In this document: one piece after another, positions 26,355 to 51,885 of the stretch
Layout: every line of letters starts with the position of its first letter
Position numbering within the stretch: position 1 is the stretch's first letter
DNA from: Escherichia phage tuntematon
DNA: 64,000 nucleotides
Strand: one strand, 5' to 3'
Sequence record: NC_052660.1
Position numbers and translations under genes: made by a program
Notes under the pieces: generated by a model
Seen by the model: only the letters and a program-made list of their open reading frames with translations
Told to the model about the DNA's origin: nothing
Database searches by the model: none

Positions 26355-26523
26355 CTTTTTTCAAAAAATATGCTACCCTAACCCCGAAGGGTCGAGCGAT
26401 AGCGAGTATAGATTATGTAATAGATTAATCTCTATCGTTAGATGTTCGAAGAATAGAGATTTAAGTACTTGTTCTTATCGGTAGATGATCGTAAGATCAA
26501 GAACAATAATAGGAGAGTATGTT
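26355..26523 (+). promoter_or_regulatory. structured intergenic region with repeats and hairpins
   Basis: Hairpin acccgaagggt; 8-bp inverted repeats atctctat/atagagat and ttgttctt/aagaacaa; direct repeats tagatta x2. Confidence 0.35.
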
Positions 26524-26721
26524 ATGTTAGTCAGTGAAATACTACCTGACTCTAATGGTAATCAGATCACTGTTGATTGGTTTCCTGGTACTGGTACACT
26601 AGATCTAACTGCTGAATGGTCTGGTGATATTTATGGAGAAGGTGTATTATCATTGTCTACAGAACAAATGATCATCCTTCGTGACTTCTTAATTAGTTTA
26701 GATCTAGGAGAAAACAAATGA
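26524..26721 (+). CDS. hypothetical protein (65 aa)
   Basis: Start moved to ATG 26524 (MLVSEIL) behind RBS AGGAGAG. Confidence 0.5.
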   Translation: MLVSEILPDSNGNQITVDWFPGTGTLDLTAEWSGDIYGEGVLSLSTEQMIILRDFLISLDLGENK

Positions 26722-26987
26722 GTAATACTTCTGTTGAGTTTATCGAGAAATCCCCTGTTCCAAAGTTATACCGTTTATCTGAAATTGAACCTATGTCTGT
26801 TTTCTACTACTACGATTCAGAAGTAAGTGAACAAGAACGGGACTACTACTTAGCTACAGATACAGGTGCAGTGTGCTTAACAGGTTCTCGTGCAGGAGAA
26901 TACATTGTGACTAGTCGTTTTAATGAAGCAGATTACTGTTGGGCTAAGGTTGAAACTAAGATTGTCATCAACATCACTAATCATTAA
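26718..26987 (+). CDS. hypothetical protein
   Basis: ORF-track ORF, ATGA overlap. Confidence 0.55.
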   Translation: MSNTSVEFIEKSPVPKLYRLSEIEPMSVFYYYDSEVSEQERDYYLATDTGAVCLTGSRAGEYIVTSRFNEADYCWAKVETKIVINITNH

Positions 26988-32475: not shown

Positions 32476-33856
32476 TAAATTTGCCCGTAAACAGGAAGTT
32501 GCTGAAGCAGCACGTCGCGCTGGTGTGTATGACAAATTGTGTGAAGGTATTGTGAAGGTGTATGGCTGGGAGGGAGAAGATGATCCAACCTGTTCAGGTG
32601 ATTTTGCAATGAACGATATGACCTTCCCATATATTTCCTACAATGCCTCCACTGGTGAAATAAACGGTGTAACCAGCACCAGTGTTGATCGTTATCCAGA
32701 CGCAGAACAAACCACAGGAGGTTACATGTTAGATCTGATTCTTAAGAAATCAGGGTTATTGGGAATCGAAGACGTTTTCGTAGATGCAGATAGTTTATCA
32801 TTAGGAGATGTTGTTAAACTACTGGTAGACTTTAGATTTGCAACAGGTAAAAGCTTCTGGAAGCCAGAAGATGCTGAACGTTTGAAGACAATCGACCCAA
32901 GTATGTATGAACTGCCACAATATAAAGATAAACAATTCCGCAAGGTTATCTTCTTTGATCGTCAAGCAGGTTTAGATGCAATGCATATTGAAGTTGGGGA
33001 TTTACCACGCCCACACTCTGCTGCTACTGGTGATCGCAGCCTTGTAGAAGTCACGGCCCAAGAATTTAAAAATATGTTTGCTGCGAAATACGATGAAGCT
33101 GCGCCTGTGCCAAGTATTGAGGAGCAAGAGGAAGAACAGTTTGTAGCGGAAGATACTGCATTTGAATATCTGCCGAACACAGGTGTTATGCCTTCAGAAG
33201 ATTTCGTGCAGGTTCGCTTCAACAATGGTCAAACAGATGTTGCTAAGGGAACAGTATTCACTTGGAATATCGACAATCTGGAAGAGTGGGCGATTAAAGA
33301 ATACTTCATTCTCCCGCGCACGGCAAAATACAACTATAATAATGGTGGACACCGCCCTTGTGGTGGTCACGTAGAAGTTCTCTTTCGTGACGGAACTACG
33401 GATAGTGGATCGGCTACGCATTTCACTTGGGGTCATGTTGGATATGATCGGGATATTGTTGGTTGGCTTCCAACTAACAACCCTAAACCACGTTACCGTA
33501 AGCCTCGTAAGAAGCCGCCAGTAGGTAAGAAGAGTGTTGTTCGTGTCCTTTACACTACACAGCAGACATACACATTTAAAAATGTGGTAGACGTGCAAGT
33601 GACCGAGGAGCGAGTTTATATCCAATATGATCGTGAAGTTACAGAGGGTATTAAAGAATCGGTTACTACCGAAATTGAAAATAAGCTTGTTATGGCAATC
33701 ATTGTTGAAGAAAGTAAAGTAGAGAACGGTAAAGCCTACACTGTTCGTGATAGCTTCTTGCGTAACATTGATGGAACTTGGGATTATAATGGACACGATG
33801 GGACCGCTGTAAAGAACGGTAAGATCATGGGAAGACAATTCCTCTCCAAACGATAA
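32468..33856 (+). CDS. hypothetical protein (462 aa)
   Basis: Start moved to ATG 32468 behind RBS AGGAGG; basic segment PRYRKPRKKPPVGKK. Confidence 0.55.
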   Translation: MINKFARKQEVAEAARRAGVYDKLCEGIVKVYGWEGEDDPTCSGDFAMNDMTFPYISYNASTGEINGVTSTSVDRYPDAEQTTGGYMLDLILKKSGLLGIEDVFVDADSLSLGDVVKLLVDFRFATGKSFWKPEDAERLKTIDPSMYELPQYKDKQFRKVIFFDRQAGLDAMHIEVGDLPRPHSAATGDRSLVEVTAQEFKNMFAAKYDEAAPVPSIEEQEEEQFVAEDTAFEYLPNTGVMPSEDFVQVRFNNGQTDVAKGTVFTWNIDNLEEWAIKEYFILPRTAKYNYNNGGHRPCGGHVEVLFRDGTTDSGSATHFTWGHVGYDRDIVGWLPTNNPKPRYRKPRKKPPVGKKSVVRVLYTTQQTYTFKNVVDVQVTEERVYIQYDREVTEGIKESVTTEIENKLVMAIIVEESKVENGKAYTVRDSFLRNIDGTWDYNGHDGTAVKNGKIMGRQFLSKR

Positions 33857-36458: not shown

Positions 36459-37064
36459 ATGCAACATAGTGTAGTAGTCAACATGCCGAATAGTGGGGAT
36501 AAATCTTTTGGTGTTCCTGCTAAAAAAGTGTGGAAAGCCCATTTTCATCTTACTTTATCTAACGTTAGTTCTGAAGAGTTGATGAAAGCAGCTAAGATTA
36601 TTGGTGCCAAATGCACAACAATTGATTTACATCGGGATACAAAGTCTCAACGTGATCGTATGTTAACAAAGTATCAAAGCGATCTCGACACTACTTTAAT
36701 GTTGCAGTGTGTAGAAAAACTTGAGAATGCAGGTTTCAATGTTGTTCGTTACAAACTGGAACGAATGTTTAAACATGTTGCCTGTGTTCTTTTCATGGAT
36801 CTAAGTAAAGAAAATTACGGAGAAGTTCACATTAAGACTTCAGCAAGTGATCCCGAAGTAGAAACAAACTTCTTCCGTATTTCTTCTAATGCTGAAGAAA
36901 TTGATTACCGATTTTATAATGCTCGCTTATATTCCGCAGAAGATAAGTTGCGTTTCAATGAAGCGTATGATATGCTCTTGAACAGTGGGATACAGATAAA
37001 AGGCTACCACATAGAACAAGTGGTAGTGGACAGTAATCTTAACTTAGACGCATGGTGGGCTTAA
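36459..37064 (+). CDS. hypothetical protein
   Basis: ORF-track ORF; one HxTx motif (HFHLTL) but no confident family. Confidence 0.55.
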   Translation: MQHSVVVNMPNSGDKSFGVPAKKVWKAHFHLTLSNVSSEELMKAAKIIGAKCTTIDLHRDTKSQRDRMLTKYQSDLDTTLMLQCVEKLENAGFNVVRYKLERMFKHVACVLFMDLSKENYGEVHIKTSASDPEVETNFFRISSNAEEIDYRFYNARLYSAEDKLRFNEAYDMLLNSGIQIKGYHIEQVVVDSNLNLDAWWA

Positions 37065-37065
37065 T

Positions 37066-37722
37066 ATGACTATTAAACATATCTCTTTTGATGTATGGAA
37101 CACACTGATCACAGCAAACTCCAATTACGCAGACATGCGAGCCTGGACTATCGCAAAATATGGAGATATTACGGAAGTTGAAGCAAGAGCAGCTTATAAA
37201 AAAATCAAAAAGGAACTGGATAATGCAGCACTTCAAGGCAAAGCCGAGTGTGCAGCATACGCCTGGGAAAGACTCGGTTCTGAACTTGGGATAACGCCTT
37301 GGAAGTCTGCAAAGCTTCGTTTCGAGTGTGAACAGTGGTTCCTTAAGTTTCCACCACACGTAGCCGTAGATCTGCCGATGTACTTGCTGTATCTTTCTGG
37401 GCGTTATGATTTGAGTATTAAGAGCAATACCAACTTCATATCAGGGGATATTCTGCGTCGTGCTTGTAAGTTTGATAGTTGGAATTGTTTTGAGTTCACC
37501 CATTTCTCGGATGAAGCTTTACTTTGTAAACCAGATCCGCGATTCTTTGCTCGCACGCTCACGTATTCTCCGATCCCTCTGTTAGGGCACGAAGTATTGC
37601 ACGTAGGCGATAGTGAAGAATATGATGGAAAATGTGTTGACTTAGGATTTAACTTCTGTCATATTAAGAACCCTAACGACTTACTAGAGAAACTTAAAAG
37701 AGGAGAAATTGTAAATGCGTAA
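37066..37722 (+). CDS. HAD-superfamily hydrolase
   Basis: Motif I FDVWNTL (dehalogenase-like DxYxTL type) and motif IV VGDSEEYD. Confidence 0.55.
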   Translation: MTIKHISFDVWNTLITANSNYADMRAWTIAKYGDITEVEARAAYKKIKKELDNAALQGKAECAAYAWERLGSELGITPWKSAKLRFECEQWFLKFPPHVAVDLPMYLLYLSGRYDLSIKSNTNFISGDILRRACKFDSWNCFEFTHFSDEALLCKPDPRFFARTLTYSPIPLLGHEVLHVGDSEEYDGKCVDLGFNFCHIKNPNDLLEKLKRGEIVNA

Positions 37723-38542
37723 TCAAACTCAAATTTTTGCAAATAAATTTGATGACCTGGAAACTGCTACTTTTGATATCCAAGATTATTCAAAATTGAA
37801 ATTTGGTAGTAACCAAGCCGCGCGTCGTATGGGTAAAGAATTGGCACTTCAGTTTTTTGCTCAAGTGGCAATGAAACATATTGGGGAACAATTTGTTATC
37901 ATTCCTTCTCCTTACAACCATGTGCATAATGCTGCAACAATGATGACAGATCATTTTATTAATTACTTTAATATGTTGCAAGCACAATATGATCAAGGTC
38001 GTTCAGCAGAACTGGACATTATTCATCGTAAAGTTAGCTATATCAACGATTATGGTTTCTTGGATAAAGCTAGTCGTAAGAAACTTATTGATGGGGATAC
38101 ATTCTACTGTAACAAAGAATTCTGGGGGGATAAGAAGCTTGTATTCATTGATGATGTAAATATCACTGGAACGCATGAAGACAAACTGATTGAGATCCTT
38201 AATGAAAATCAAGTTAAAAATGATGTTTACTTCCTGTATTTTGCAAAATATGAAGGTAATCAAGCAGATACCGAAGCTAAACTGAATTTTAACTACATTA
38301 ATACACCGGAAGCGTTTGTTAAAATGATTAATGAAGAACGTGATGCACAGTGTCTTGTTCGTCCTATTAAGTATCTTATGGGCCAAAATCATGAAGACTT
38401 CAAAATCATTCTTAGCCAATTGCCACATTACTATGTAGAGCAACTTTTCTTTGGATGCTTGGGAGAAGGTTACAACCGAATTTCAAAGTATGCTGAAAAC
38501 TTTGAATTCTTGGATCGTTACACAAAACAACACATTCTGTAA
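37715..38542 (+). CDS. type I phosphoribosyltransferase-fold protein
   Basis: PRPP-binding loop KLVFIDDVNITGTHEDK. Confidence 0.65.
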   Translation: MRNQTQIFANKFDDLETATFDIQDYSKLKFGSNQAARRMGKELALQFFAQVAMKHIGEQFVIIPSPYNHVHNAATMMTDHFINYFNMLQAQYDQGRSAELDIIHRKVSYINDYGFLDKASRKKLIDGDTFYCNKEFWGDKKLVFIDDVNITGTHEDKLIEILNENQVKNDVYFLYFAKYEGNQADTEAKLNFNYINTPEAFVKMINEERDAQCLVRPIKYLMGQNHEDFKIILSQLPHYYVEQLFFGCLGEGYNRISKYAENFEFLDRYTKQHIL

Positions 38543-38555
38543 TAAGGAGCTAAAA

Positions 38556-39029
38556 ATGCTTAAAATGAAAACAGGTAATCTTATTGATGCCGCTAAAGCA
38601 GGTGAAGTAACTGTTATTGCTCATTGTTGCAACTGTATGTGTAATATGGGGGCAGGTATTGCCCCACAAATCAAACGAGCATTTCCTTACGCATATGCAG
38701 CAGACTTAGACACAATGGCTGGTGATCAAAGTAAACTAGGTTGTTTTAGTTTAGGGGTGCCAGACGAACAATCAGACCCTTTGGTATATAATCTATACGG
38801 GCAATACCGTTACGGATACAATGCTAAAGGTCGTCAGTTGGACTATGATGCACTTTACGATGCACTAATAGCTATGGCTAACGATTTGCTTCTCCGTGAC
38901 CAAAAATGTAAGATCGGCTTACCTATGATTGGCGCTGGACATGCTGGAGGTAATTGGGCTATCATCCAAGTGATGATTGAAGAAACTTTAGTAAAAACAG
39001 GTCACGATGTGACTATTTATAAACTTTAA
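38556..39029 (+). CDS. macrodomain protein (ADP-ribose binding/hydrolase)
   Basis: VTVIAHCCNCMCNMGAGIAPQIKRAFP and IGLPMIGAGHAGG match macrodomain signature blocks; start moved to ATG 38556 behind AAGGAG. Confidence 0.7.
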   Translation: MLKMKTGNLIDAAKAGEVTVIAHCCNCMCNMGAGIAPQIKRAFPYAYAADLDTMAGDQSKLGCFSLGVPDEQSDPLVYNLYGQYRYGYNAKGRQLDYDALYDALIAMANDLLLRDQKCKIGLPMIGAGHAGGNWAIIQVMIEETLVKTGHDVTIYKL

Positions 39030-39041
39030 GAGGAGATTAGT

Positions 39042-39263
39042 ATGGGTGTTTTTGCAGGTATTGTTGCAGTGGTAAGCTTTTTTGTTATTGCTTTTATGCT
39101 TAGTTTGATTCCAGCTTGGTTACTGTTGCTGGCTTACAACTATGTTGCTGAAGTTATGGGTCATGCAGATATCACTGTCCCAGTAACCTTCTGGACCGTG
39201 GTTTGTGTTTCGTTTATTCTGGCTGTATTACGAGGAATCTTTTCCTCTCATTCAACAAAATAA
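39042..39263 (+). CDS. small membrane protein
   Basis: Two hydrophobic helices. Confidence 0.5.
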   Translation: MGVFAGIVAVVSFFVIAFMLSLIPAWLLLLAYNYVAEVMGHADITVPVTFWTVVCVSFILAVLRGIFSSHSTK

Positions 39264-39342
39264 GTGTTGACATAGTTCTTAAAAAGAGTAAGATATATCA
39301 CATGAAGCGGGGAATAGTTCCCCGCAAAGAGAGGAGAAAAGA

Positions 39343-40317
39343 ATGCAACTTGGTTTCCCAATTATTGATGTAGTTGTTTTAGTTGGTATTTTAGCATTGT
39401 CTATTGGTATTGATTTCTTTGGTCACAAAGAAAATAAAGAAATTTCATTCAAATCCGCAGTTGGTTGGTCGATCTTTTGGATTGGTGTATCATTAGCTTA
39501 TTATGGTTTTGTATACTTCCAACATGGTGCCGATTTTGCTAACTTGTTTTTAAGTGGATATGTGTTGGAAAAATCTTTGTCGGTAGATAACTTGGTAGTA
39601 TTTGTAGCAGTATTCGCAAGTTTTGGTATTAAAAGCACACACTTGCAGCACAAGATTCTACTTTGGGGTATTGCAGGTGCGATTGTCTTCCGAGGTGTGT
39701 TTGTAGCAGTAGGCACTTACTTGTTAAGTTTGGGCTGGTATGTTAATATCTTCTTCGGTGCGGTCATCCTTTTCTGTGCAGCTAAAATGGTATTTGCTGG
39801 AGATAATGACGCAGAAGTTGATTACTCTAAACACTGGGCTACCCGTATTGTTCGTAAACTGTTCCCTGTATCTAATAAAATGGATGGGGAGAAGTTCTTC
39901 ACAATCGAAAATGGTGTTCGTGTAGCAACTCCAGCTTTGGTTTGCGTATTCGTGATGGAAATGGTGGATGTAATCTTTGCAGTAGATTCGGTTCCAGCGG
40001 TGATCGCAGTGACACAAGAACCCCTGCTTGTATTCTCTTCGATGTTATGTGCAATCTTAGGTCTACGTGCTCTGTTCTTTGTTCTTAGTGTCGCACTGAA
40101 GTATCTGGTTCACTTGGAGAAAGCAGTTATTGTGGTTCTGGTGTTTGTAGGCGTTAAACTGATGTATCACCCGTTTGCAGAAACATTGCATGAGAAAATC
40201 AGTTTCCTGCCAGCACATATTGATCCAACTGTTAGTATGTATATCGTGCTTGGTACTTTGGCCCTTGGTGTTATTGCAAGCTTTATCTTCCCTGAAAAAG
40301 AAGAAGCTACTGTTTAA
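39343..40317 (+). CDS. TerC-family integral membrane protein
   Basis: Polytopic membrane protein with LEKSLSVDNLVVFVAVF motif typical of TerC. Confidence 0.6.
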   Translation: MQLGFPIIDVVVLVGILALSIGIDFFGHKENKEISFKSAVGWSIFWIGVSLAYYGFVYFQHGADFANLFLSGYVLEKSLSVDNLVVFVAVFASFGIKSTHLQHKILLWGIAGAIVFRGVFVAVGTYLLSLGWYVNIFFGAVILFCAAKMVFAGDNDAEVDYSKHWATRIVRKLFPVSNKMDGEKFFTIENGVRVATPALVCVFVMEMVDVIFAVDSVPAVIAVTQEPLLVFSSMLCAILGLRALFFVLSVALKYLVHLEKAVIVVLVFVGVKLMYHPFAETLHEKISFLPAHIDPTVSMYIVLGTLALGVIASFIFPEKEEATV

Positions 40318-40323
40318 TAAATG

Positions 40324-40348
40324 AGCCTCCTTCGGGAGGCTATTTTAT
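40324..40348 (+). terminator. rho-independent terminator
   Basis: agcctcc-ttcg-ggaggct then ATTTTAT. Confidence 0.75.
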
Positions 40349-40359
40349 AGGAGAGACTT

Positions 40360-40710
40360 ATGAGTAATTTTGATGAAATTCAAGAACTTGTTTGGGATTT
40401 ATCTGGTGATGTGGATTACATTTCAGATTATCTTTCAAAAGTTTACCCTGGGGTAAGCGTTATGATTGTGACCAAAGATCCAATTAATTTGCCTCCTAAT
40501 GTTGTAGCTTGTTGTGGAAGTGGTTCAGGAGAAGTAGAGCCTGTATCTCGTTGGGAATTAACTAAAGCTGTTTCAAAACGAAACGGTGAAGTTTTGAATA
40601 TTGATATTGAGCAAATATGGACTTCTCCAGCAGCCAAATGGAATGATCCAAATGGTTGGGATTTGTTCTTCTGGGATAATGAGACTGATGATGAGGTGTT
40701 TTTAAAATGA
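40360..40710 (+). CDS. hypothetical protein
   Basis: ORF-track ORF; RBS AGGAGAG. Confidence 0.55.
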   Translation: MSNFDEIQELVWDLSGDVDYISDYLSKVYPGVSVMIVTKDPINLPPNVVACCGSGSGEVEPVSRWELTKAVSKRNGEVLNIDIEQIWTSPAAKWNDPNGWDLFFWDNETDDEVFLK

Positions 40711-40893
40711 AATACTTGTTGGTTGTGTTTGAAAATATCTGTTTTGCAATAGGGTTGTTTGTTGTAATTTTTGTATTGACAAGCGTAATCAACGGCAGTA
40801 AAGTGAGTTTATACCGAGATGGAGAGCAACTTTATTGCTTCTCTGGAGATTTCAAACACAGATGTATTAATAGCCAAAACGAGGAAAGCAAAT

Positions 40894-41331
40894 ATGAAAA
40901 AACTAGCCCTGATTTTAATTGGTTGTATCTTTTTAACAGCTTGCGAGGATGAAACAAATCCTGCACAATACCAACAACCTCCTCAACAATACGCTCAACA
41001 AGGATCTGACGGAGATACAACTATTATCAACAATGGTGGCGGTTCTAGTAGTAGCGGTGTTGGTGAGTTTGCTACAGGTATGTTGTTAGGGCATATGATG
41101 AGTGGCGGTAGTAATCGTAACAGTGGGGATTATAACGATAACAGAACGATTATTAATAAGCATTATAATACACCTAAACCGAAAACTAATTTTTATGGTA
41201 AGCCTAAACAAGAGATAAAAACTTATGAAAAGCCGAGACAAACTTTTAAAACAAATAGTAGCTATACAACTCGTAAATCTTACAATAGCCCTTTAAGTAA
41301 AAAGAGTTCATCTCGTAGCAAGCGACGTTAA
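40894..41331 (+). CDS. lipoprotein, low-complexity Q/P/S/G/N-rich
   Basis: Start moved to ATG 40894 (MKKLALILIGCIFLTAC lipobox) behind RBS GAGGAAAG. Confidence 0.5.
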   Translation: MKKLALILIGCIFLTACEDETNPAQYQQPPQQYAQQGSDGDTTIINNGGGSSSSGVGEFATGMLLGHMMSGGSNRNSGDYNDNRTIINKHYNTPKPKTNFYGKPKQEIKTYEKPRQTFKTNSSYTTRKSYNSPLSKKSSSRSKRR

Positions 41332-41345
41332 TAAGGAGAAAAACA

Positions 41346-41939
41346 ATGACAATTTCTATTCGTACTTCCATCGTAGGTGTTAAAAGGTTGCCTAATGCTT
41401 TGCAAATCACACGCGCTTTGAGGGATACATTCTCTGCTGTGGACGAGCATAAGATGCTTGATAATCTTTCAAATTGGCCCTATTTCCATTATTTTAAAAA
41501 TGAAGATGACGAGTTTATAGACGCTGTTTCTTATGGTTATGATTTCGGTAAGGAGGTTTCTGCTGAAGAATTTGTAGCTATGGTGTTCCCAAACGGTTTG
41601 CCTACTCGCAGTAAACGTAAAAAAGGACCAAAAAACAAGAAACGTGCTACTAATAAAGCTACCATTTTCTTTACTGATGGCACACAATATACGATTAAAG
41701 ATTTTGAAGAGGTATCTTATACAGCAGGTGGGAATCTTTCTTTCTACACCATCAAAAAACAAAACTCTACGTTCAGCCATGTTTCTAACATGATTGAAAT
41801 GTTAGTAGAAGATATTGAAAGCGTAGCTGTGTTAGGTATGCATAAAAGCTTTTTAATTACAAATATTTCAGATTTCAGTGCAAGTTTATCTGGCCCTGAT
41901 TTTGAAGCCACGACCACACATTTCGCTTTTAAGGTGTAA
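41346..41939 (+). CDS. hypothetical protein
   Basis: ORF-track ORF. Confidence 0.55.
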   Translation: MTISIRTSIVGVKRLPNALQITRALRDTFSAVDEHKMLDNLSNWPYFHYFKNEDDEFIDAVSYGYDFGKEVSAEEFVAMVFPNGLPTRSKRKKGPKNKKRATNKATIFFTDGTQYTIKDFEEVSYTAGGNLSFYTIKKQNSTFSHVSNMIEMLVEDIESVAVLGMHKSFLITNISDFSASLSGPDFEATTTHFAFKV

Positions 41940-41942
41940 GTT

Positions 41943-42533
41943 ATGCATACCGAGAGAGACTTGCAACTCTTGTGGTGGGAAGTGATGCAGGAAATAAAAG
42001 AAGATTTTCCTGTTTACTACAACATGTTACGTGAAGCAGGATATAAAGCTTGTGTTAGAAACAAAGTGAATAACTCTTTCGGTTGGTGCAACTACCGAGA
42101 TAAAATTGTTGTTGTAAATTGGCACTTGCATAAGAACTCCACAAGAGATATGATCGTGGATACAATGAAGCACGAAATTGCTCATGCTATTGATGGTTGT
42201 ATGGGTAAGTTTAGTAGGCACGGTGCTCATTGGCAAAAACTGGCAGCAGAATTAGGGGCTAATCCTAAAGCCACTTCCAAAGAGCCGTTGAACCACGAAT
42301 ATAAATATGTTCTTGTTCTGGTAGATAGGTTTGCGACAAGATGTGTTAGAGGTTATAATCGTAAACCTAATCGCATGTACCCAGGTAAGCAACCTAATAT
42401 GTGGTTGAAATCAGATAAAGAAGGGACCGAAGGAAAATTATGGTTGTATAAATGGGACGATTGGGTTAAAGTAGCTAAAGAGTACGGTGTTTCACCATAT
42501 ATAAGAGATGCAGAAGAGGAGAATGAAGAATGA
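41943..42533 (+). CDS. SprT-like zinc metallopeptidase
   Basis: HExxH motif MKHEIAHAIDG with downstream His; SprT-like length. Confidence 0.55.
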   Translation: MHTERDLQLLWWEVMQEIKEDFPVYYNMLREAGYKACVRNKVNNSFGWCNYRDKIVVVNWHLHKNSTRDMIVDTMKHEIAHAIDGCMGKFSRHGAHWQKLAAELGANPKATSKEPLNHEYKYVLVLVDRFATRCVRGYNRKPNRMYPGKQPNMWLKSDKEGTEGKLWLYKWDDWVKVAKEYGVSPYIRDAEEENEE

Positions 42534-43642
42534 CAAGTCCATTTTTAAAAGCAGCTACTGGTGGTCAGAAGAAGCCTGAAATGAGCGTATTTGCTGCAAC
42601 AACAGATGCAAGTAAATCTGTATTCGCTCCAAGCGTGTTAGATGCCAGTCCTGTTTATGCACCAGCGGCACCGCAAGAAGTTCCAGTTTTGCCTTCTATG
42701 ACCCGACAAGAGATCGAAGAGATTGGGGCAGAGGCAGGAACAACCTTGCGTTCCTTGAATGCCGAGGTATTAAAACATCAACGTAGTAATCAAGGCGATC
42801 AGATGAGTGAACGACTCACAGCTTTGATTAAACAGGCAAAACAACTTGATCCAAACTCTATTAAACAAAGCAAGGGTATTACTAAACTCATTAAAAAAGT
42901 TATGGGTATGAAAGAAGACCTGTTTGGGGAGTTTGATAATGTTAATAACCGTATTGAAGAGTTGGTAAAGAACCTTCAAATGGATATTCGCAAAGAAGAA
43001 GATTCCTTGGTATATCTTGAAAAGCTACATCAAGCTATTGGACAGTATGCTGCAAGTTTGAACCGAGATATGCAGCTTCTAACAGCAACCTATGAAAAAG
43101 AAGAACAAGCTTTGGCTGCTCTTCCAGAAGATGCAGTAGAACAGCGACAAGTGATCCGAGATACTTTGGATCTTCTGGAGATTCGTATTGCAGATTTAAA
43201 AGCATTGCGCCTACTGTGTGTCCAAATGGGACCGCGTGTACAAGGTATGCAAAAAGTTTCTGCAAGCTTAATGCGATCTGCGCGTAACATAGTAAATAAT
43301 GTTATTCCTGCTTACTCTGCTAACTTCTCAATGTATATCGAGAGCTTACGTCAAATGAAAGCAGCAGAGACGCAGAATAACGTTCTTGATGAATTTAACC
43401 TGGCAATTAAACTGGGTAGCGATCTTGCCACACAGAATCAGATCGAAGCAGCAGCACTGGCTAACCGTCAAGTGTTGGATATTGAAACTCTGCGTCACGA
43501 TCAGGAAAACTTGGTTAAGATGTTGGAAGAAACTAACCGCATCAATACGGAAGCCCGTGCTGCTCGTGTTGATTATATTAATGAAGTTCAATCTCTGGAA
43601 GACGGGATGGTAGCTGCTGTGAAACGAGGGCTTGGTAAATGA
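42530..43642 (+). CDS. TelA-like (toxic anion resistance family) coiled-coil protein
   Basis: 370-aa mostly helical protein of TelA-like size, sitting between TerC and TerD genes; family call is tentative. Confidence 0.45.
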   Translation: MTSPFLKAATGGQKKPEMSVFAATTDASKSVFAPSVLDASPVYAPAAPQEVPVLPSMTRQEIEEIGAEAGTTLRSLNAEVLKHQRSNQGDQMSERLTALIKQAKQLDPNSIKQSKGITKLIKKVMGMKEDLFGEFDNVNNRIEELVKNLQMDIRKEEDSLVYLEKLHQAIGQYAASLNRDMQLLTATYEKEEQALAALPEDAVEQRQVIRDTLDLLEIRIADLKALRLLCVQMGPRVQGMQKVSASLMRSARNIVNNVIPAYSANFSMYIESLRQMKAAETQNNVLDEFNLAIKLGSDLATQNQIEAAALANRQVLDIETLRHDQENLVKMLEETNRINTEARAARVDYINEVQSLEDGMVAAVKRGLGK

Positions 43643-43833
43643 GAATCCGTATCTATATAATTGATGAAGACATTGGTGTCCGTTATGATGACGAAAAACG
43701 ATTCGCACCGATGGGAGGTATATATCCCCCAAGTGTTCTAGCAGTTTGTCGTGATTGTTATATTTATGAAGGTTGTCGTAACTTCCGTAAATTCGAACTC
43801 CTTGCAGATATTGACTTCAATGAGGAGGAGTAA
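43639..43833 (+). CDS. hypothetical Cys-containing protein
   Basis: ORF-track ORF, ATGA overlap. Confidence 0.5.
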   Translation: MRIRIYIIDEDIGVRYDDEKRFAPMGGIYPPSVLAVCRDCYIYEGCRNFRKFELLADIDFNEEE

Positions 43834-44006
43834 TGAAAATATTACGAGTGAATATTGAAACTGCTTGGTGTGGATGCAATGAGGTTGTGGATATCGAAAT
43901 TGAAGATGATATGTCTCAAGAGGATATAGAAGATCTTGCACACGAAACCTTTCAGGATTATTGTAATTACGGGTTCCATATTTTAGAGGAGGAAGAAGAT
44001 GTATAA
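43833..44006 (+). CDS. candidate 57-aa acidic protein
   Basis: Hand-translated MKILRVNIETAWCGCNEVVDIEIEDDMSQEDIEDLAHETFQDYCNYGFHILEEEEDV; TAATG overlap; not in ORF track. Confidence 0.4.
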   Translation: MKILRVNIETAWCGCNEVVDIEIEDDMSQEDIEDLAHETFQDYCNYGFHILEEEEDV

Positions 44007-44397
44007 TCCAACAGGTATTCTTTTAAAACTTACAGTAACAGACCCTACTCTTTTCACCAAGTTAGCAAGTGGTGAAGTTTATGAAGTAATGAAAGATGAT
44101 GACGGTTGGTGTTATCTTTGTGGCTACTTCCTCTGTGATGCAGAAGAGTTAGAATCCATTGTAACTAAAGGTTTTTATGAAGAACCAGGGTTCCGTGTGG
44201 AAACTACGCAGAAACCTGATACCATTACGTTGACTCGACAGGAACTGATCACAATCATTGAAGATGCTTTTATTGATGGCTGGAATACACAAGATAATGA
44301 CTGGGGTGGACCCGAAGCTTTTCTGGAACATCATAAAGCTTATGGAGAATTTTGTGAAACCACTGTAGCTCTTGATAATCTGAAGGAGGGTTTGTAA
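43999..44397 (+). CDS. hypothetical protein
   Basis: ORF-track ORF. Confidence 0.55.
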   Translation: MYNPTGILLKLTVTDPTLFTKLASGEVYEVMKDDDGWCYLCGYFLCDAEELESIVTKGFYEEPGFRVETTQKPDTITLTRQELITIIEDAFIDGWNTQDNDWGGPEAFLEHHKAYGEFCETTVALDNLKEGL

Positions 44398-44960
44398 TGG
44401 GTTGTTTTAGTTTTTTGTGCAAAGAATCGGGCAAAGCTGCCCTTTCTACTTCTTTCGACGGATCGCCTTGCTACCTCTTTCTTTTGAAGGACGGTGTTGT
44501 TATTGAAGAGATGTATGGCAACTATGATAGTTATGGTTGTGTTTTCTCTGGAAAGGAGGATGAAAATGGTGTTCGTGAACGATTTGAATGGGCTATGGAT
44601 TGGAGTAAGGTTTGTGATTTGATGCATTCCTCAAATCCAAGGGACGGTATCGCTATGGTGCTGGAAGAGTACTTTACAGGTGAAATCCCTACAGAACAAT
44701 CTGACGGAGATCCTAACCAAGGTTGGGGTGATGGTGAAGAAGATCCAGATTGTTTTTTCAGCACAGAAAAGAATAAGTTTAAACGTGTTGACAACCCTTA
44801 TCACAAAGTGCATAATACTCTCATTGAAACAGAAGATGACAAGATGGAAATTGAAGAAGATGATCCTCTTGTAACACTTCCTATAAGTGAGTTACAAAAG
44901 ATCACTAAGGAAGCTTACGATTTGGGCTTCAAAATTGGTAGAGGAGGTATGCGTGTTTAG
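44397..44960 (+). CDS. hypothetical protein
   Basis: ORF-track ORF. Confidence 0.55.
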   Translation: MGCFSFLCKESGKAALSTSFDGSPCYLFLLKDGVVIEEMYGNYDSYGCVFSGKEDENGVRERFEWAMDWSKVCDLMHSSNPRDGIAMVLEEYFTGEIPTEQSDGDPNQGWGDGEEDPDCFFSTEKNKFKRVDNPYHKVHNTLIETEDDKMEIEEDDPLVTLPISELQKITKEAYDLGFKIGRGGMRV

Positions 44961-45231
44961 ATTCAATATTCAAGAAGAAAAAAGTCAGGATTTACCTATT
45001 GCTTTCGAAGATCTTGACGTAGGGGCCACATTCATGTATTATGATGCCTATGAAGACGCAGGGTTGGATACCTACCGTAACTTGGTGTTCATTAAAAATT
45101 CCACAAACAGTGCGATCTGTATTAATGGATCACTAGCACAACGAGGCTATACTCATTGCATCCCACCAGATACAAATATGGTGGAAGTAGATTTAGAAGT
45201 TACCAATATTACACTTAAGAAGGAGAAATAA
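44953..45231 (+). CDS. hypothetical protein (paralog of 46253..46522)
   Basis: Start moved to GTG 44953 behind GGAGGT; FRFNIQEEK...DLDVGATF aligns with LNFEIDEQK...DLDVGDTF. Confidence 0.45.
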   Translation: MFRFNIQEEKSQDLPIAFEDLDVGATFMYYDAYEDAGLDTYRNLVFIKNSTNSAICINGSLAQRGYTHCIPPDTNMVEVDLEVTNITLKKEK

Positions 45232-45232
45232 T

Positions 45233-46027
45233 ATGTCCGAGAAAATCAGCCTGAAAAAACGTCAAGAAAACCTTGCTTTCTCTCTGAAAAAGAATAAGAA
45301 CCTGAATGAAGGTAAGATTGTTCTTCGTGTAGCATGTGCTCTAGATATTTCTGGTAGTATGCATGGTCTATATTCTAGTGGGGTAGTGAGTGATTTTGTA
45401 GGTAAACTGCTTCCTTTTGGTATGCTGTTCGACGATAATCAACAAATTGATATGTGGGCCTTCAATACGAGTTCCCAAGAGCTTACTCCAGCAACAGCAG
45501 ATGTTTACGATGACTATGTTGGTAAATGTATGCGTAATGTTCGTATCGGAGGTGGAACAAATTACGCCCCTGTAATGGCAGATATCTACGATGAGTATTT
45601 TGGCACTGTTACCAAATATATTACCACTAAACAAGTGGTACAAGAGGAGGCTCCAAAGAAAGGCTTCTTTAATCGTCTGCTTGGTAAAACTGAAACAGTA
45701 TCTGTAGAGCGTGAAAAGGTTGTAGCTGTATCTGAACCAGGTGCTGACGTTACCCCTGGTGTTGTATTCTTCCAGACAGACGGTGAGAATGGTGATCCTA
45801 GTGCTGTTCGTCGTCTTATTGAAGAGAATAAGAATAAACCTATTTATTGGTTCATGGTTGGCGTTGGTAATGAGAAGTTTGGCTTCCTGAAAGAACTGGC
45901 AAATGCTTATGATAATGTTGGTTTTATTGGCATTAAAGATTTAGACTTGACAGATTCAGAGCTTTATGACAAACTCTTATCTGAAGAGTTCGGAGAGTGG
46001 GTTGTTAAAGTAGGTGCTAAAAAATGA
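45233..46027 (+). CDS. von Willebrand factor A domain protein (TerY-like)
   Basis: MIDAS motif DISGSM near N-terminus of a Rossmann-like region. Confidence 0.6.
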   Translation: MSEKISLKKRQENLAFSLKKNKNLNEGKIVLRVACALDISGSMHGLYSSGVVSDFVGKLLPFGMLFDDNQQIDMWAFNTSSQELTPATADVYDDYVGKCMRNVRIGGGTNYAPVMADIYDEYFGTVTKYITTKQVVQEEAPKKGFFNRLLGKTETVSVEREKVVAVSEPGADVTPGVVFFQTDGENGDPSAVRRLIEENKNKPIYWFMVGVGNEKFGFLKELANAYDNVGFIGIKDLDLTDSELYDKLLSEEFGEWVVKVGAKK

Positions 46028-46272
46028 TCGACGAGCTTGCCTCTCAAGTCATAGAAAATTATTGGCGCGAGAGAGAAGCTTTCATTATGCGCAGTCTCAA
46101 AGAGTATTTCATTGGGACTGTGCGAATGGAAGATATTGTAAGTAGAGTAGAGATTCATGTATGGCCCGATTATGAAGAATGGGTTGACAAAGAAAATGAA
46201 AATGCTATAATTCTTCGTATATACAAACCGGAGATAACATTAGGAGGAAGAAGTGTTAAACTTCGAAATTGA
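46024..46272 (+). CDS. hypothetical protein
   Basis: ORF-track ORF, ATGA overlap. Confidence 0.5.
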   Translation: MIDELASQVIENYWREREAFIMRSLKEYFIGTVRMEDIVSRVEIHVWPDYEEWVDKENENAIILRIYKPEITLGGRSVKLRN

Positions 46273-46522
46273 TGAGCAAAAAGTAAATAAACGATGCCTT
46301 ACCATTAAAGATTTGGATGTAGGAGATACTTTCGTCTATGAAAATGCATTTGACGAAAATGGTTTAGACCTTAGTGAAATCATTGTTTATTTAAAAGTAG
46401 ATGATGGGGAAAATGATTATTCTGCTGTAGAACTAAACCATCATGCACAATTAGTATCAATCCAAAACACATCTAAGCTTTTGGAAGTAGAATTGACTGT
46501 AACTGGTATTACACTTAAATAA
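46253..46522 (+). CDS. hypothetical protein (paralog of 44953..45231)
   Basis: GTG start; shared DLDVG.TF and LEV.LTVT.ITLK blocks. Confidence 0.5.
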   Translation: MLNFEIDEQKVNKRCLTIKDLDVGDTFVYENAFDENGLDLSEIIVYLKVDDGENDYSAVELNHHAQLVSIQNTSKLLEVELTVTGITLK

Positions 46523-46537
46523 TAGAGGAGACAAAAG

Positions 46538-47140
46538 ATGACTGATAAAATTTCCCTGAAAAAAGGCTCTAGCGAAAAAATTTCCCTGAAGAAGGTTGCT
46601 CCGGCTCTGAAAGAACTGCGCCTGGAATTCTCTTGGAAGTCTGATTCTAAACTGGATCTGGATGTAAGTGCACTGGTTTGTCGTCACAATGCCGCTGGCA
46701 ATCCTGAAATGCTGTCTGCACGTCATCTTGTTTGCTATGCTAACAAGTTTGATCCTGAACGTTCTACCTTCGCTGGTGACGATGTTCGTGATGGCACTGG
46801 CAGCATGGAGCAGATTGATATTACTCTGGCTAAAATCTCTCCTGATGCACAAGAGATTGCCTTTGTTCTGACCATTGATGATGATACAGGTCTGAAACGT
46901 TTTGGTCATGCTTCTGAAGGTATGCTTAAAATCTTCGACTCCGAGCGCAATGTGGAAATTCTGGATTTTGACTTCCTGGCTCCTGAAGTAGCTGGTAACA
47001 CAATCTGCCACGTGGCTTCCTTGGTTCGTGAAGATGGAGAATGGAAGCTGAAAGCATATGGTGTAGGTAAAGCTGGTCTGGATATTTGTGATGTGGTGAT
47101 GGCCTTCGGTGGTAAAAAAGAATGGTATGAATGTCCGTAA
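46538..47140 (+). CDS. TerD-domain protein
   Basis: 200 aa; LDLDVSALV and GDDVRDGTGSMEQIDITL match the TerD signature (GDNxTGEGDGDDEQI). Confidence 0.7.
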   Translation: MTDKISLKKGSSEKISLKKVAPALKELRLEFSWKSDSKLDLDVSALVCRHNAAGNPEMLSARHLVCYANKFDPERSTFAGDDVRDGTGSMEQIDITLAKISPDAQEIAFVLTIDDDTGLKRFGHASEGMLKIFDSERNVEILDFDFLAPEVAGNTICHVASLVREDGEWKLKAYGVGKAGLDICDVVMAFGGKKEWYECP

Positions 47141-47239: not shown

Positions 47240-47761
47240 TTGCTGATAAAAAACTTTGTAACAGTTGCGTTACTATCCTTAACTGCTTTTACATTTACAC
47301 CTGTTGTGGCGAAAGCCGAAGCTGCAAACGTAAAAACCGCTAAAGTAGTTCACAAATGTACAAAGCAATATAATGATAAAATTCTATTAGCTTGTGCAAT
47401 TTACGCAGAAGGTCGCGGTCTGGGTAAAAAAGGAATGAATGCCGTTGGGAATGTGGTAATCAACAGAAGAAATGATACCTACTTCCCTAACACAGTCAGA
47501 GGAGTCTTGTTCCAGAAAGGGCAATTCTCATATGCGAAAACTTTTAACGTAACAGAGAAAGATAAGTGGCAGGAAGCAAAAGCAATAGCGGAGCGTTTAC
47601 TTTATTTAGAGAAACATTTTCCTGAATTGCGGTCTGTTTTAGATGTTACTAAAGGTGCTCTATACTTCAAGAAACGGAATATAAGAACACACTGGGAACG
47701 TGATATGCGTCTTGTTTATCGAGATAAAGTGCATGGTTTCTATCTACCAAAGGGGAGTTAA
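47240..47761 (+). CDS. SleB/CwlJ-type cell wall hydrolase with signal peptide
   Basis: Signal-peptide-like N-terminus; LLACAIYAEGRG, MNAVGNVVINRR and GQFSYAKTF match hydrolase_2 family blocks; TTG start. Confidence 0.7.
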   Translation: MLIKNFVTVALLSLTAFTFTPVVAKAEAANVKTAKVVHKCTKQYNDKILLACAIYAEGRGLGKKGMNAVGNVVINRRNDTYFPNTVRGVLFQKGQFSYAKTFNVTEKDKWQEAKAIAERLLYLEKHFPELRSVLDVTKGALYFKKRNIRTHWERDMRLVYRDKVHGFYLPKGS

Positions 47762-48462: not shown

Positions 48463-49026
48463 ATGATTTATTATATTACTCCCTATCTGACAGGAAATAT
48501 CGGCAAGGCTATCAATGAAGCCATTGCCGTTCTTCCAGATGATAGTTGGGTGTGTTTAAGAGATACCGATACAATGTTCCTCCTACCTGATCAACCATCT
48601 ATGCTTGAAGAGCTTGTTATGTCAAACCCGCCTTTTGATGTAATAGGTGCAACTTGTAACAGGTTAGGCAGTGGTTATCAGCTTTTCTCTAACCAAATTA
48701 ACGATGATCCAGATATTCTAAACCATATAGAATATGCTAAGATTGCAAGAGAATATCATAAAGTAAATGTTGAAGAAGTTCCTTTCGGAACACCTCTGGC
48801 AGGTTTCTTTTTGCTTTTTAGAAAATCATTGTGGAATGAAATTCCTTTTGAAGAAAAATCTATCCAATTCGACTTAATTTTCTCTCGCACTTTACATGAA
48901 AAAGGAAAGAGGTTAGGATTGATGCGGGGAATGTATCTGTTTCACATTTACAGATTAGGTCAAACAAATCCTCAACGGTCTATACATCATTTATTACACT
49001 GTCATGATCACAGTAAAACTATTTAG
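48463..49026 (+). CDS. putative glycosyltransferase-like protein
   Basis: DxD-type acidic motif CLRDTDTMF; weak call. Confidence 0.4.
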   Translation: MIYYITPYLTGNIGKAINEAIAVLPDDSWVCLRDTDTMFLLPDQPSMLEELVMSNPPFDVIGATCNRLGSGYQLFSNQINDDPDILNHIEYAKIAREYHKVNVEEVPFGTPLAGFFLLFRKSLWNEIPFEEKSIQFDLIFSRTLHEKGKRLGLMRGMYLFHIYRLGQTNPQRSIHHLLHCHDHSKTI

Positions 49027-49034
49027 GAGAGAAA

Positions 49035-49718
49035 ATGGAAAATATTAAAATCGGAGTGGGTGTTATCACTGTAGGTGTCCGTCCACTTAAAGACTACCTT
49101 GTAACAGATCCACGTGCAGATTTTCGAGTATTCAACGATCCAGATCGTAAAGGTGTAGCTTATGCCAGGAATGAACTTATGCACCAGTTTTATGAAGAAG
49201 GTTATGATTATTGGTTTATTTTTGACGACGATTGCTACCCAGTCATGGAGGGATGGGAAACATATTTTGTAGATCAAGCTGTCTCTGGAGGATGGGATTT
49301 CTTTGGTATGCCGGAGTACTTCAAAGATAAAGTTGTTGGAAGCAAAGGAGAAGTTATTCTCTGGGAACTTGCAATGTGTCAATTTGCAATGTATTCTCGT
49401 GCTGTTGTTGAGAAGATGGGTTATTTCCGTCCTTACACTCACGGTTATGGTTTTGAAGATGCTGAATGGGGACACCGTTTGCAAGCTGCTGGTTTGAATC
49501 ATGGTATTCAGGCAACACCTTGTCCACTTCGTATCATGGCTTATATCCACCCAGACGATGTTTTTGGAAACAATCCTATGCCTTTTGCTAACCTGACAAA
49601 AGAAGAGAAAGAGGCTGCTATTGGGATTAACTGGGAAGAATATAAAGCATCTTTAGAGGATATTAAAAATGGGAAAATCCGAATTTCCTATGAGGAGGCA
49701 CTAGCACATGTCAAATAA
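49035..49718 (+). CDS. glycosyltransferase, GT-A fold (family 2-like)
   Basis: FIFDDDCYP and YGFEDAEWGHR resemble GT2 signature blocks. Confidence 0.6.
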   Translation: MENIKIGVGVITVGVRPLKDYLVTDPRADFRVFNDPDRKGVAYARNELMHQFYEEGYDYWFIFDDDCYPVMEGWETYFVDQAVSGGWDFFGMPEYFKDKVVGSKGEVILWELAMCQFAMYSRAVVEKMGYFRPYTHGYGFEDAEWGHRLQAAGLNHGIQATPCPLRIMAYIHPDDVFGNNPMPFANLTKEEKEAAIGINWEEYKASLEDIKNGKIRISYEEALAHVK

Positions 49719-50655
49719 AAAATGGTCTAAACTAAAAATTGATGCAAAACCTCACAGCGGTTGTGACTATCATCGTATTGTTATACCATTTAACAACAAT
49801 AATATTCAACCTAAGAAAGATGTTGTTGTGTTTAACCGTATCCACTCTAAAGGTGCAGAATACGTTTTATCTTTGAAACGTCAAGGTGTTAAGGTTGTTG
49901 TAGACTTAGATGATTTTTACCAACTTAATCCAGAACATTATTTAGCAAGCCTATACGAGTCAAACACTCATGCTATTGTAGCTATGGTTAAGCTTGCTGA
50001 TGTGGTTATTGTGACTACGGAATATTTGGCATATAAGATCCGTCACTTAAATAGGAATGTTGTTGTGATCCGAAATGCACTTCCTTTTGATAGCGGACAA
50101 TTCACTTTGTCAAATGATCGTTCATCCGGTACCCCTGTTGTATGGGCTGGCGGTGCTAGTCACGAACCAGACTTACGACTAGTCTCTAATACTTTCGATG
50201 ATGAACTTCTTACTATTGCGGGATATGAAGCATCACAAAGCATCACGGGACAAGAGTGGATTAAGATTCGCAGAAATTTACCAAATGCCAAATATAAAGC
50301 CGCTGTAAAAGATTTAGATAATTACATGAGTGTTTACGAAAGTCATGCTATTGCTATAGCTCCTTTGGTAGATAATGATTTTAATAATTGTAAAAGTAAT
50401 CTCAAAATCCTGGAAGCTGGAGCAAAAGGTATTCCAATTGTTTGTTCTAAGGTATTACCTTATTTTAACCCTGTAGATGCTCGCGCTGTTGCTTACGCAG
50501 AGAATAAAGCAGAATGGCATTACGAAATTGTTAAGCTTCTTCGCAATCCAAACTATCGGGAAGATCGTGGCTTGTTCTTGGCTGAACATGTTCGAACACA
50601 TTATAATCTGGCAGATGCAAACGAGTTGCGACGCCAGGTTATTGAAAGTTTGTAG
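49708..50655 (+). CDS. glycosyltransferase, GT-B fold, paralog 1
   Basis: C-terminal SNLKILEAGAKGIPIVCS resembles GT-B nucleotide-sugar site; paralog of 50663..51607. Confidence 0.5.
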   Translation: MSNKKWSKLKIDAKPHSGCDYHRIVIPFNNNNIQPKKDVVVFNRIHSKGAEYVLSLKRQGVKVVVDLDDFYQLNPEHYLASLYESNTHAIVAMVKLADVVIVTTEYLAYKIRHLNRNVVVIRNALPFDSGQFTLSNDRSSGTPVVWAGGASHEPDLRLVSNTFDDELLTIAGYEASQSITGQEWIKIRRNLPNAKYKAAVKDLDNYMSVYESHAIAIAPLVDNDFNNCKSNLKILEAGAKGIPIVCSKVLPYFNPVDARAVAYAENKAEWHYEIVKLLRNPNYREDRGLFLAEHVRTHYNLADANELRRQVIESL

Positions 50656-50662
50656 GTGAAGT

Positions 50663-51607
50663 ATGGGACAAATAATTCTTGACAATCGTAACGGAATCAA
50701 TTATAGTGTCTGCGATTTCCATAGGGTAGTGCTGCCTTACTCAAGGCAGTTCTCTTCACAACCTAAACACAACGTTTTCGTTTTTAACGGAGTGCCAACA
50801 AAAGGTAAAGAGGGCTTTTTAGCCCTTAAAAACCTAGGCTTTAAAATGGTTATGGATTTGGATGACTCTTTAGTTATTCCAAAAGGACACATGTTAGAAG
50901 GTATTTTTGAATCAGGTATTCGTGAACATTTAAAATGGTTTTTAGAGCACAGCGATCTTGTTACAACTACGACACCTGCTTTGCAAGTTGAACTTTCACA
51001 ATACAATGATAATGTGCACATAATCCCTAATGGTCTTCCTTACGATGAAGGTCAATTTGTGTTGACCCGTGATCGCTACTCCAAAACTCCATTAGTCTGG
51101 GCTGGAAGTGAAACACATAAACAAGATTTGGCTATCTTGCCCGATTTTGGTAAAAATCTTACAATATGTGGTTTTCGTAGGGATTCTGAAGTTTTAAGTA
51201 GTCGTGAATGGTCTGTGATCAGAGAAAATGTAGCACCAACTTGTGTTTATGAAGGTGTAAGACCATATGCCAACTACATGGAATCTTACGATGGTCATCA
51301 AATCAGTCTTGCGCCATTGCTTGATAACGTGTTTAATAATGCAAAAAGCAATCTTAAAATTCTTGAGGCAGGTGCTAAGGGTTTACCTTTGATCTGTTCT
51401 CCTCGTGAGAATTATCATACACAAGAGTTTAAAGATTTGTTATTCTTTGCTGAAACACCTTCCGAGTGGAAAGATATTACGGAATACTTATTAAGTGCTC
51501 CCGATGTTTGCATGGAGAAAGGATTAGCATTAGCTAAGTATGTCAGGACTCATTATCACATTGATGTGTTGAATGAGCGTCGTAGACTTTTATTTGAGGA
51601 GCTATAA
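50663..51607 (+). CDS. glycosyltransferase, GT-B fold, paralog 2
   Basis: SNLKILEAGAKGLPLICS; collinear similarity to 49708..50655. Confidence 0.5.
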   Translation: MGQIILDNRNGINYSVCDFHRVVLPYSRQFSSQPKHNVFVFNGVPTKGKEGFLALKNLGFKMVMDLDDSLVIPKGHMLEGIFESGIREHLKWFLEHSDLVTTTTPALQVELSQYNDNVHIIPNGLPYDEGQFVLTRDRYSKTPLVWAGSETHKQDLAILPDFGKNLTICGFRRDSEVLSSREWSVIRENVAPTCVYEGVRPYANYMESYDGHQISLAPLLDNVFNNAKSNLKILEAGAKGLPLICSPRENYHTQEFKDLLFFAETPSEWKDITEYLLSAPDVCMEKGLALAKYVRTHYHIDVLNERRRLLFEEL

Positions 51608-51885
51608 TGATTAACACTTTTGATTTTGAATACACCACTCGTAACGGGAAAGCCTTAGTCGTGGAGGTGGATTACTATTATGAAGAGCCTAACCCGCTTT
51701 CTCGTGAAAGTGATTGGGATTACCACGGAGGGCTTTTAATCGACGGTATTCGTTTTTATGAAGGCTCTACAGAAGTTTTTGAAAAAGATTTAAATGTAAC
51801 TGTAGCAGAAATTGCTTTCCAATTTAGAAAGCACATGGAAGAACTAGAAGCAGAATATATGATGGAGACTAACGAACCATTTTAA
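51607..51885 (+). CDS. hypothetical protein
   Basis: ORF-track ORF, ATGA overlap. Confidence 0.5.
   Translation: MINTFDFEYTTRNGKALVVEVDYYYEEPNPLSRESDWDYHGGLLIDGIRFYEGSTEVFEKDLNVTVAEIAFQFRKHMEELEAEYMMETNEPF

Follow-up and report, generated by a model that had tools for sequence, protein, structure and literature searches.

A four-gene glycosyltransferase cluster of Phapecoctavirus coliphages as a candidate system for O-glycosylation of virion proteins

Four consecutive genes of Escherichia phage tuntematon (NC_052660.1), at positions 48463 to 51607 of the 64,000-nucleotide stretch analysed here (the window), encode glycosyltransferases (GTs) that we tentatively propose, with slightly less than even confidence, to constitute an O-glycosylation system for virion proteins. 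According to this model, two enzymes of the GT-A type and a duplicated GT-B enzyme would act in the cytoplasm of the infected cell and jointly assemble a short O-linked oligosaccharide on phage structural proteins. The glycan would probably contain L-rhamnose, supplied as dTDP-L-rhamnose by the phage enzymes RmlABCD, in addition to host nucleotide sugars, and the virion would thereby acquire a glycan coat like that of mycobacteriophage Che8. Sugars would most likely be attached, in related small phages, to the Thr-Thr at the very C-terminus of the major capsid and tail-tube proteins; in the present lineage the candidate acceptor is the major capsid protein, ending in ..LTTA. Since the same gene set occurs here, with two copies of the GT-B gene and with a sugar pathway that has moved to another place and grown to RmlABCD, O-glycosylation of virion proteins is the simplest function to transfer. 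Distinctly more doubtful, though possible, is the wider notion of a widespread, unrecognised virion O-glycosylation system in phages of Gram-negative bacteria that reads a C-terminal Thr-Thr, often Pro-Thr-Thr, on capsid and tail-tube proteins, and that provides Phapecoctavirus and Justusliebigvirus with a rhamnose-containing capsid coat.

The 3.1-kb GT region is 99–100% identical to that of many Phapecoctavirus (Stephanstirmvirinae) Escherichia phages, phAPEC8 among them, and at 99% identity the window is that of a phAPEC8-like Phapecoctavirus. The phAPEC8 annotation (NC_020079) was used as a stand-in for genome parts outside the window, position x of the window corresponding to about 161228 - x on the opposite strand of phAPEC8. 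All four genes are on the + strand. P1 (48463..49026; phAPEC8 gp071) specifies a minimal GT-A glycosyltransferase of 187 residues with the conserved DxD at D34-x-D36, P2 (49035..49718; gp072) a GT-A (GT2-like) enzyme of 227 residues with invariant FDDD and a YGxED motif, P3 (49708..50655; gp073) a GT-B (GT4-like) enzyme of 315 residues, and P4 (50663..51607; gp074) its 314-residue GT-B paralogue. Each is preceded by a Shine-Dalgarno-like sequence, and neighbouring genes abut or overlap. The first-pass annotation of the window had described four consecutive, co-directional GT-like genes just upstream of the replication genes; the open reading frames (ORFs) indeed occupy exactly these positions and carry the motifs it quoted, and a 92-residue ORF followed by the primase-helicase comes directly downstream. 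This 92-residue ORF (gp075; 51607..51885, +; phrog_4240) is acidic, translationally coupled to P4 and devoid of family annotation in the Pfam/PHROG comparison. Its distribution across phages mirrors Stephanstirmvirinae and is lineage-specific, and no counterpart stands beside GT-B in the two prophage cassettes inspected closely (L005, L006). Promoter and terminator scans gave nothing usable on expression timing. As RefSeq already names gp071–074 'glycosyltransferase' and PHROGs places P1–P4 in 'glycosyltransferase' families, the genes themselves are known, and their role is what would be new: none of the four is covered by an NCBIfam model, and the literature searched assigns them no function.

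Structure prediction and fold searches assign a GT-A fold to P1 and P2, Rossmann-like with a DxD metal/nucleotide-sugar motif. The searches agree on GT-A and do not discriminate between acceptors. Pfam support alone is thin for the four GTs: P1 lacks any match, P2 has only sub-threshold matches (TAGT, Glyco_transf_7C, GT2), P3 stays below threshold with Glyco_trans_1_4 and Glyco_trans_1_2, and P4 reaches 25.1 bits against Glyco_trans_1_2 (PF13524; gathering score 25). Across the P3/P4 family, 52 of the 70 members match PF13524, 32 match PF13692, a few match PF13579 or PF13439, and some also match GT4 N-terminal domain models. P3 and P4 share 41% identity (E 1e-76), and P4 has every invariant column of the GT-B family alignment. 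Both the GT-A-type assignment of the first two proteins and the tandem GT-B pair, as initially annotated, are thus borne out, the former by structure prediction, the latter by the Pfam matches across the family together with the P3/P4 identity; P1 and P2 are GT-A enzymes by predicted structure, and P3 and P4 are paralogues of the GT-B/GT4-like group. P3 is the copy nearest to the single GT-B of other phages, with 42–46% identity to prophage GT-Bs. One GT-B each is present in the relatives L011, L006 and L005, and the duplication is specific to Stephanstirmvirinae-like phages. For P1, P2 and P3, neither the individual sequences nor family profiles retrieved a significant match from the PDB by sequence search. 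GRAVY values of -0.19 to -0.36 mark P1–P4 as hydrophilic.

Relatives of the GT-B enzymes at 40–50% identity are in many cases filed under bacterial names, and their contigs are prophages. In an Enterobacter huaxiensis prophage, where the cassette occupies L006:7797-10921, the order is endolysin, P1 (44%), NDP-sugar dehydratase/epimerase, P2 (38%), GT-B (46%), HNH, TerS, TerL and capsid; the order holin, P2 homologue, GT-B, one further gene, TerL, portal and capsid is found in Pseudomonas silvicola as well as in over 24 metagenome contigs. A 135-kb myovirus contig carries a 184-residue ORF in the P1 position, an epimerase, a P2 homologue, a single GT-B and a primase. A scan of a viral contig collection with the family alignment confirmed 576 GT-B relatives. 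For the neighbourhood analysis, 2474 ORFs from 106 GT-B-bearing loci were clustered: a P2-type GT-A is found in 48 of these loci and a P1-type gene in 21, always co-directional with GT-B. About 30 environmental phages of ~30 kb place GT-B between a sigma-like regulator plus small membrane protein and HNH/TerS/TerL, with an FkbM-like methyltransferase, recognized by motif, nearby. In Cellulophaga phage phi12:3, a P1-domain GT is located within the head module beside a methyltransferase. Taken together, the comparisons show that the GT cassette is mobile and, in small temperate phages, part of the late/head region. As a separate observation, the ~30-kb GT-B-bearing environmental phages encode an early-region protein of ~155 residues (cluster 18; L078:2780-3247 and 15 homologues) with a conserved Ser/Thr-rich C-terminal tail, ..PPSKSSTSSVKTTISK.

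In several of the small cassette-bearing phages, major virion proteins end in Thr-Thr. In the Enterobacter prophage L006 the capsid ends in ..GANTTT and the tail-tube protein in ..TTTANPTT. Among the 2474 ORFs, 20 have -TT endings versus 7.7 expected, and 8 (7 distinct) have -PTT endings versus 0.3 expected (Poisson ~1e-8 to 1e-9). According to PHROGs and Pfam, the TT-ending proteins comprise major head proteins (L006 ..GANTTT, L049 ..SANPTT, L025 ..DAGSTT, L066/L055 ..FAAPTT and L067 ..GTHPTT), major tail proteins (L006 ..ANPTT, L066 ..GGPTT, L067 ..NTWTTT, L057 ..GEATT and L050 ..LEPTT) and one weakly assigned virion protein (L069 ..LNPTT); the head protein of L060 (..TQAT) and the capsid of phi12:3 (..VSGT) end in Thr without TT. 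The tags are located past the end of the family profiles, and in L006, L066 and L067, among others, the capsid and a tail protein of one phage are both tagged, though non-homologous. As a control, we inspected 63 homologues of one capsid family on viral contigs. No P1-, P2- or P3-type gene lies within ±10 kb of the 57 capsids without terminal Thr, and two of the six that end in Thr are accompanied by a P2-type GT. Counted as distinct capsids, the comparison is 4/4 versus 4/61 (Fisher p = 1e-4), a value that overstates independence because several positives are interrelated. A general scan for Ser/Thr-rich tails (≥5 of the last 10 residues) told us nothing; the signal emerges solely for the exact -TT/-PTT ending. 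A further one of the six, on L132:10055-17153 (IMG/VR 3300018059_000021), is a capsid ending in ..AGSTT followed directly by an FkbM methyltransferase, a GT-D/methyltransferase fusion and a GT2-like protein; the P1–P4-type cassette is absent and a different GT set is present instead, which suggests that TT-tagged capsids also pair with unrelated GT sets.

Position and tags also bear on the idea that the enzymes remodel the host envelope, adding sugars such as rhamnose to a lipid-linked or lipid A-core/ECA/NGR-type glycan and so blocking superinfection or the sticking of progeny to debris. The receptors of these phages are surface glycans (PMC8594841; PMC11990801), lipid-linked glycans are the usual substrates of GT4-like GT-B and GT2-like GT-A enzymes, some sources automatically name the GT-B relatives diacylglycerol glucosyltransferases, and the phage-supplied sugar is common in O-antigens. 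However, the cassette of temperate phages is co-directional inside the late operon rather than a lysogen-expressed moron, and the TT tags would be left unexplained. There is also no sign of a Gtr-type flippase or membrane partner: neither P1–P4 nor the neighbours scanned match Pfam models of the GtrA flippase, the GtrB bactoprenol GT or membrane GtrV, and P1–P4 are hydrophilic. Moreover, the authors of the BASEL collection doubt that abundant surface glycans could be modified effectively and in full during a lytic cycle (PMC11990801). We therefore judge envelope remodelling to be unlikely.

Regarding the donor sugar, phAPEC8 encodes a complete dTDP-L-rhamnose pathway (gp166–169), with RmlB, RmlA, RmlC and RmlD each passing the NCBIfam equivalog cut-offs. 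Because these genes are located outside the window, the likely donor pathway was invisible to the first-pass annotation. The phage rhamnose pathway co-occurs with the GT block: tblastn across phages at ≥95% identity yields 63 records for RmlC and 63 for GT-B, and at 60–80% identity 65 records for RmlC and 66 for GT-B, the latter group being the phi92-like Justusliebigvirus. A few Klebsiella phages have both genes and Vequintavirus genomes have neither; P1, P2 and the 92-residue ORF are distributed in the same pattern. The natural Phapecoctavirus isolate vB_EcoM_ESCO37 (OM386659; PMC10269720) is devoid of RmlA and RmlB and retains the four GT genes at 98.8% identity, which suggests that the host can supply the rhamnose precursor when the phage enzymes are absent.

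Glycosylation of a hydroxylated pyrimidine in phage DNA, evading restriction as in T4, RB69 and the TET-associated systems, was the substrate emphasized by the first-pass annotation, next to virion and host surface glycans. The cluster adjoins replication genes, and Olsen et al. put forward rhamnosylated hydroxymethyl bases as a speculation (PMC7552041). In addition, P2 weakly matches TAGT (PF20691; 19.5 bits, gathering score 27.5, E 1e-3) and the PHROG of the T-even beta-glucosyl-HMC alpha-glucosyltransferase (E 8e-6), in both cases only along some 38 residues around the DxD (37 for TAGT). All known sugar modifications of DNA, however, begin at a hydroxylated pyrimidine produced by a ThyA homologue or by TET/JBP (PMC13326640; bioRxiv 2023.12.21.572611). 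Neither a ThyA-type hydroxymethylase nor a 5hoC synthase or TET/JBP enzyme was found in the whole phAPEC8 annotation or in 10 candidates tested for base-modification domains, genes annotated 'DNA methyltransferases' included, a scan that covered part of the hypothetical proteins. The sole thymidylate synthase of phAPEC8, gp156, is of the ThyX/Thy1 type, has no ThyA match in the PDB and, per record, is common to the GT-less phages rV5 and PVP-SE1. Published restriction data likewise show sensitivity where resistance would be anticipated. In an avian pathogenic E. coli (APEC) phage collection typed by HincII restriction fragment length polymorphism, all phages were cut except three T-even types, ESCO47 and ESCO10 (Dhakavirus) and ESCO58 (Tequatrovirus); the enzyme digested all five Phapecoctavirus and three Justusliebigvirus isolates (PMC10269720). 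The window contains 56 HincII sites. The phi92-like phages Bas60–62 of BASEL are 'exceptionally susceptible' to restriction-modification systems 'despite a putative dTDP glycosylation machinery' (PMC8594841); phi92-like phages have the same GT cluster at ~70% protein identity. Finally, the same cassette resides in small prophages without base-modification genes. DNA glycosylation is accordingly disfavoured, and we deem it very improbable, whereas virion glycans, mentioned beside it in the first-pass annotation, are the best supported of the three substrates.

Returning to virion-protein O-glycosylation, the capsid protein is the candidate acceptor in the present lineage. The Stephanstirmvirinae capsid, encoded outside the window, ends in ..RPELV[VI][KR]LTTA in every genome or contig examined, including two contigs with GT-B, whereas the capsids of 40-odd GT-less relatives end in ..STGTFA, ..LTGTFA, ..STGKFTA, ..[AV]TLK.. 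or ..MTSV, none with TT. Capsid genes of the divergent cassette-bearing large myoviruses L046 and L048 were not found, so that the comparison comprises one lineage. Several observations weigh against our proposal. All LTTA endings come from one evolutionary lineage and are unlike the -PTT tag, for which reason they are only suggestive of an acceptor, and GT-less relatives also have Thr near the capsid C-terminus. In phAPEC8, a tag is absent from the proteins of the tail tube, the sheath and the decoration, and in this lineage the cassette is within the replication block, not the late block. Pseudomonas E217-like prophages and Bacteroidota-type phages with GT-B have capsids without a TT tag. 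Among the Che8 GTs, gp108 is marginally similar to P2 (E 0.002), and gp109 and gp110 do not match. We found no direct evidence for a glycoprotein in Phapecoctavirus or phi92-like virions, and a 3.2 Å cryo-electron microscopy paper on phi92 mentions no glycan; flexible terminal glycans are often invisible by this technique. No genuine ORF within the window ends in TT. The colanidase tailspike gp088 (..VPTT) was considered as a shared acceptor and rejected, as this tail is Phapecoctavirus-specific and absent from phi92-likes. The published lack of glycoprotein in E. coli phage JEP7 has no bearing here, JEP7 being a Rosemountvirus.

The surroundings of the cluster raise a further alternative, in which the acceptor is a non-structural phage or host protein or a small molecule, for example the product of the adjacent Ter/PRTase genes. 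The Ter cluster is directly upstream in the same strand block, likewise in relatives, and a Burkholderia GT-B homologue that follows an intimin/invasin-type adhesin gene suggests glycosylation of non-virion proteins within the family. By contrast, the cassette travels without Ter genes in all small phages examined, and positive evidence for any specific alternative was not found. We regard such an acceptor as quite improbable. In the Burkholderia dolosa locus (JAIMDN010000082.1; L015:3025-8440), the gene for the 411-residue GT-B homologue follows those for an inverse autotransporter of the intimin/invasin type and a 571-residue protein, an arrangement that hints at adhesin glycosylation by the GT-B family outside phages.

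The Ter set itself is complete, extends over window positions 36459-47140 (+) and comprises HAD-type hydrolases, a ComF-like PRTase, a TerC-like membrane protein, TelA, a vWA-TerF-like protein and TerD, the ORFs being 36459-37064, 37066-37722, 37715-38542, 39343-40317, 42530-43642, 45233-46027 and 46538-47140 (all +). It is conserved in the divergent relative L010. Such Ter sets were reportedly predicted by Anantharaman et al. in 2012 to make a nucleoside-like metabolite. Within this region, 40819-41331 (+) encodes a 170-residue protein with a Ser/Arg-rich C-terminal tail (..SPLSKKSSSRSKRR), and its homologues (cluster 39) have longer SR-repeat tails (..SSSRSSFSSSRRR). A perfect sigma-70 consensus (TTGACA, 16 nt, TG, TATAAT) is present at 46184-46211 (+), inside ORF 46024-46272 and just upstream of the ORF starting at 46253 and of TerD. 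Three small genes upstream of the GT block lies an endolysin gene (47240-47761, +) for a SleB-like cell-wall hydrolase (Pfam Hydrolase_2, E 2e-17), whose N-terminus, MLIKNFVTVALLSLTAFTFTPVVAKAEA, resembles a signal peptide or SAR segment; in the Enterobacter prophage the endolysin directly precedes the cassette. Some RefSeq product names of phAPEC8 seem doubtful: the 'DNA methyltransferase' gp117 (66487-66966) matches an XkdF-like prohead protease domain, gp194 (26117-26800) and gp177 (33211-33720) have no methyltransferase domain match, and the ThyX-type 'thymidylate synthase' gp156 (45712-46710) scores well under the NCBIfam equivalog cut-off.

Phapecoctavirus and Justusliebigvirus are common broad-host-range coliphages in therapy cocktails. 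If their virions indeed carry a glycan coat, antibody recognition, clearance, stability and possibly adsorption could change, providing an engineering handle, and virion glycosylation would be extended from actinobacteriophages to phages of Gram-negative bacteria, with different GT families, a -TT/-PTT tag and, in large virulent phages, their own rhamnose supply. The tag in the relatives renders the idea testable with a few peptides and three enzymes. Should the proposal fail, an ordinary annotated GT cluster with unassigned substrate remains. The analysis also does away with DNA glycosylation, a tempting and probably wrong annotation of genes that well over 100 sequenced phages carry.

Among known systems, the T-even DNA GTs (alpha-gt, beta-gt and beta-glucosyl-HMC alpha-GT) and the arabinosyl-5hoC enzymes of RB69 and DLP3 are likewise soluble phage GTs encoded among DNA-metabolism genes, and RB69-like phages also encode a nucleotide-sugar pathway. 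Unlike in these phages, a hydroxymethylase or 5hoC synthase is lacking here, the DNA is restriction-sensitive and there is no significant homology beyond the DxD region. TAGT enzymes share with P2 the weak local match around the DxD, but P2 remains below the gathering score, and the search revealed neither a TET/JBP nor a C5-methyltransferase partner. GtrABC and other seroconversion modules are comparable as phage-encoded glycosylation affecting a surface glycan; the present enzymes differ in being cytoplasmic and encoded by a virulent phage, and those temperate phages that have the cassette carry it in the late operon, not next to the integrase.

The closest mechanism, by analogy, appears to be virion glycosylation in actinobacteriophages, although membership through homology to the tested enzymes is not established. 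Phage GTs have been reported to glycosylate the capsid and tail tube of Che8 (PMC12363180; PMC11256854). Che8 (gp108–110), Corndog and Myrna resemble the present phage in possessing a multi-gene GT cassette, and P2 is homologous to the GT-A domain of gp102 from the cluster F phage Boomer (E 2e-14), an enzyme not among the tested GTs. The Che8 layout, with GT genes 108–110, gp111, HNH, genome end/cos and terminase, places the GT genes just upstream of HNH and terminase, as in the small cassette-bearing phages. A short C-terminal Ser/Thr tag, ..TGS or ..DGS, is common to the capsid protein and the major tail protein of Che8 and Boomer, and cassette-bearing relatives likewise carry such tags on these two proteins. 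Freeman et al. reportedly located the Che8 glycans on C-termini in 2023. Unlike Che8, the phages described here infect Gram-negative hosts, use different GT families and, in the relatives, end in -TT/-PTT rather than -GS; in tuntematon the cassette is situated in the replication block, has a duplicated GT-B and is paired with a phage dTDP-rhamnose pathway.

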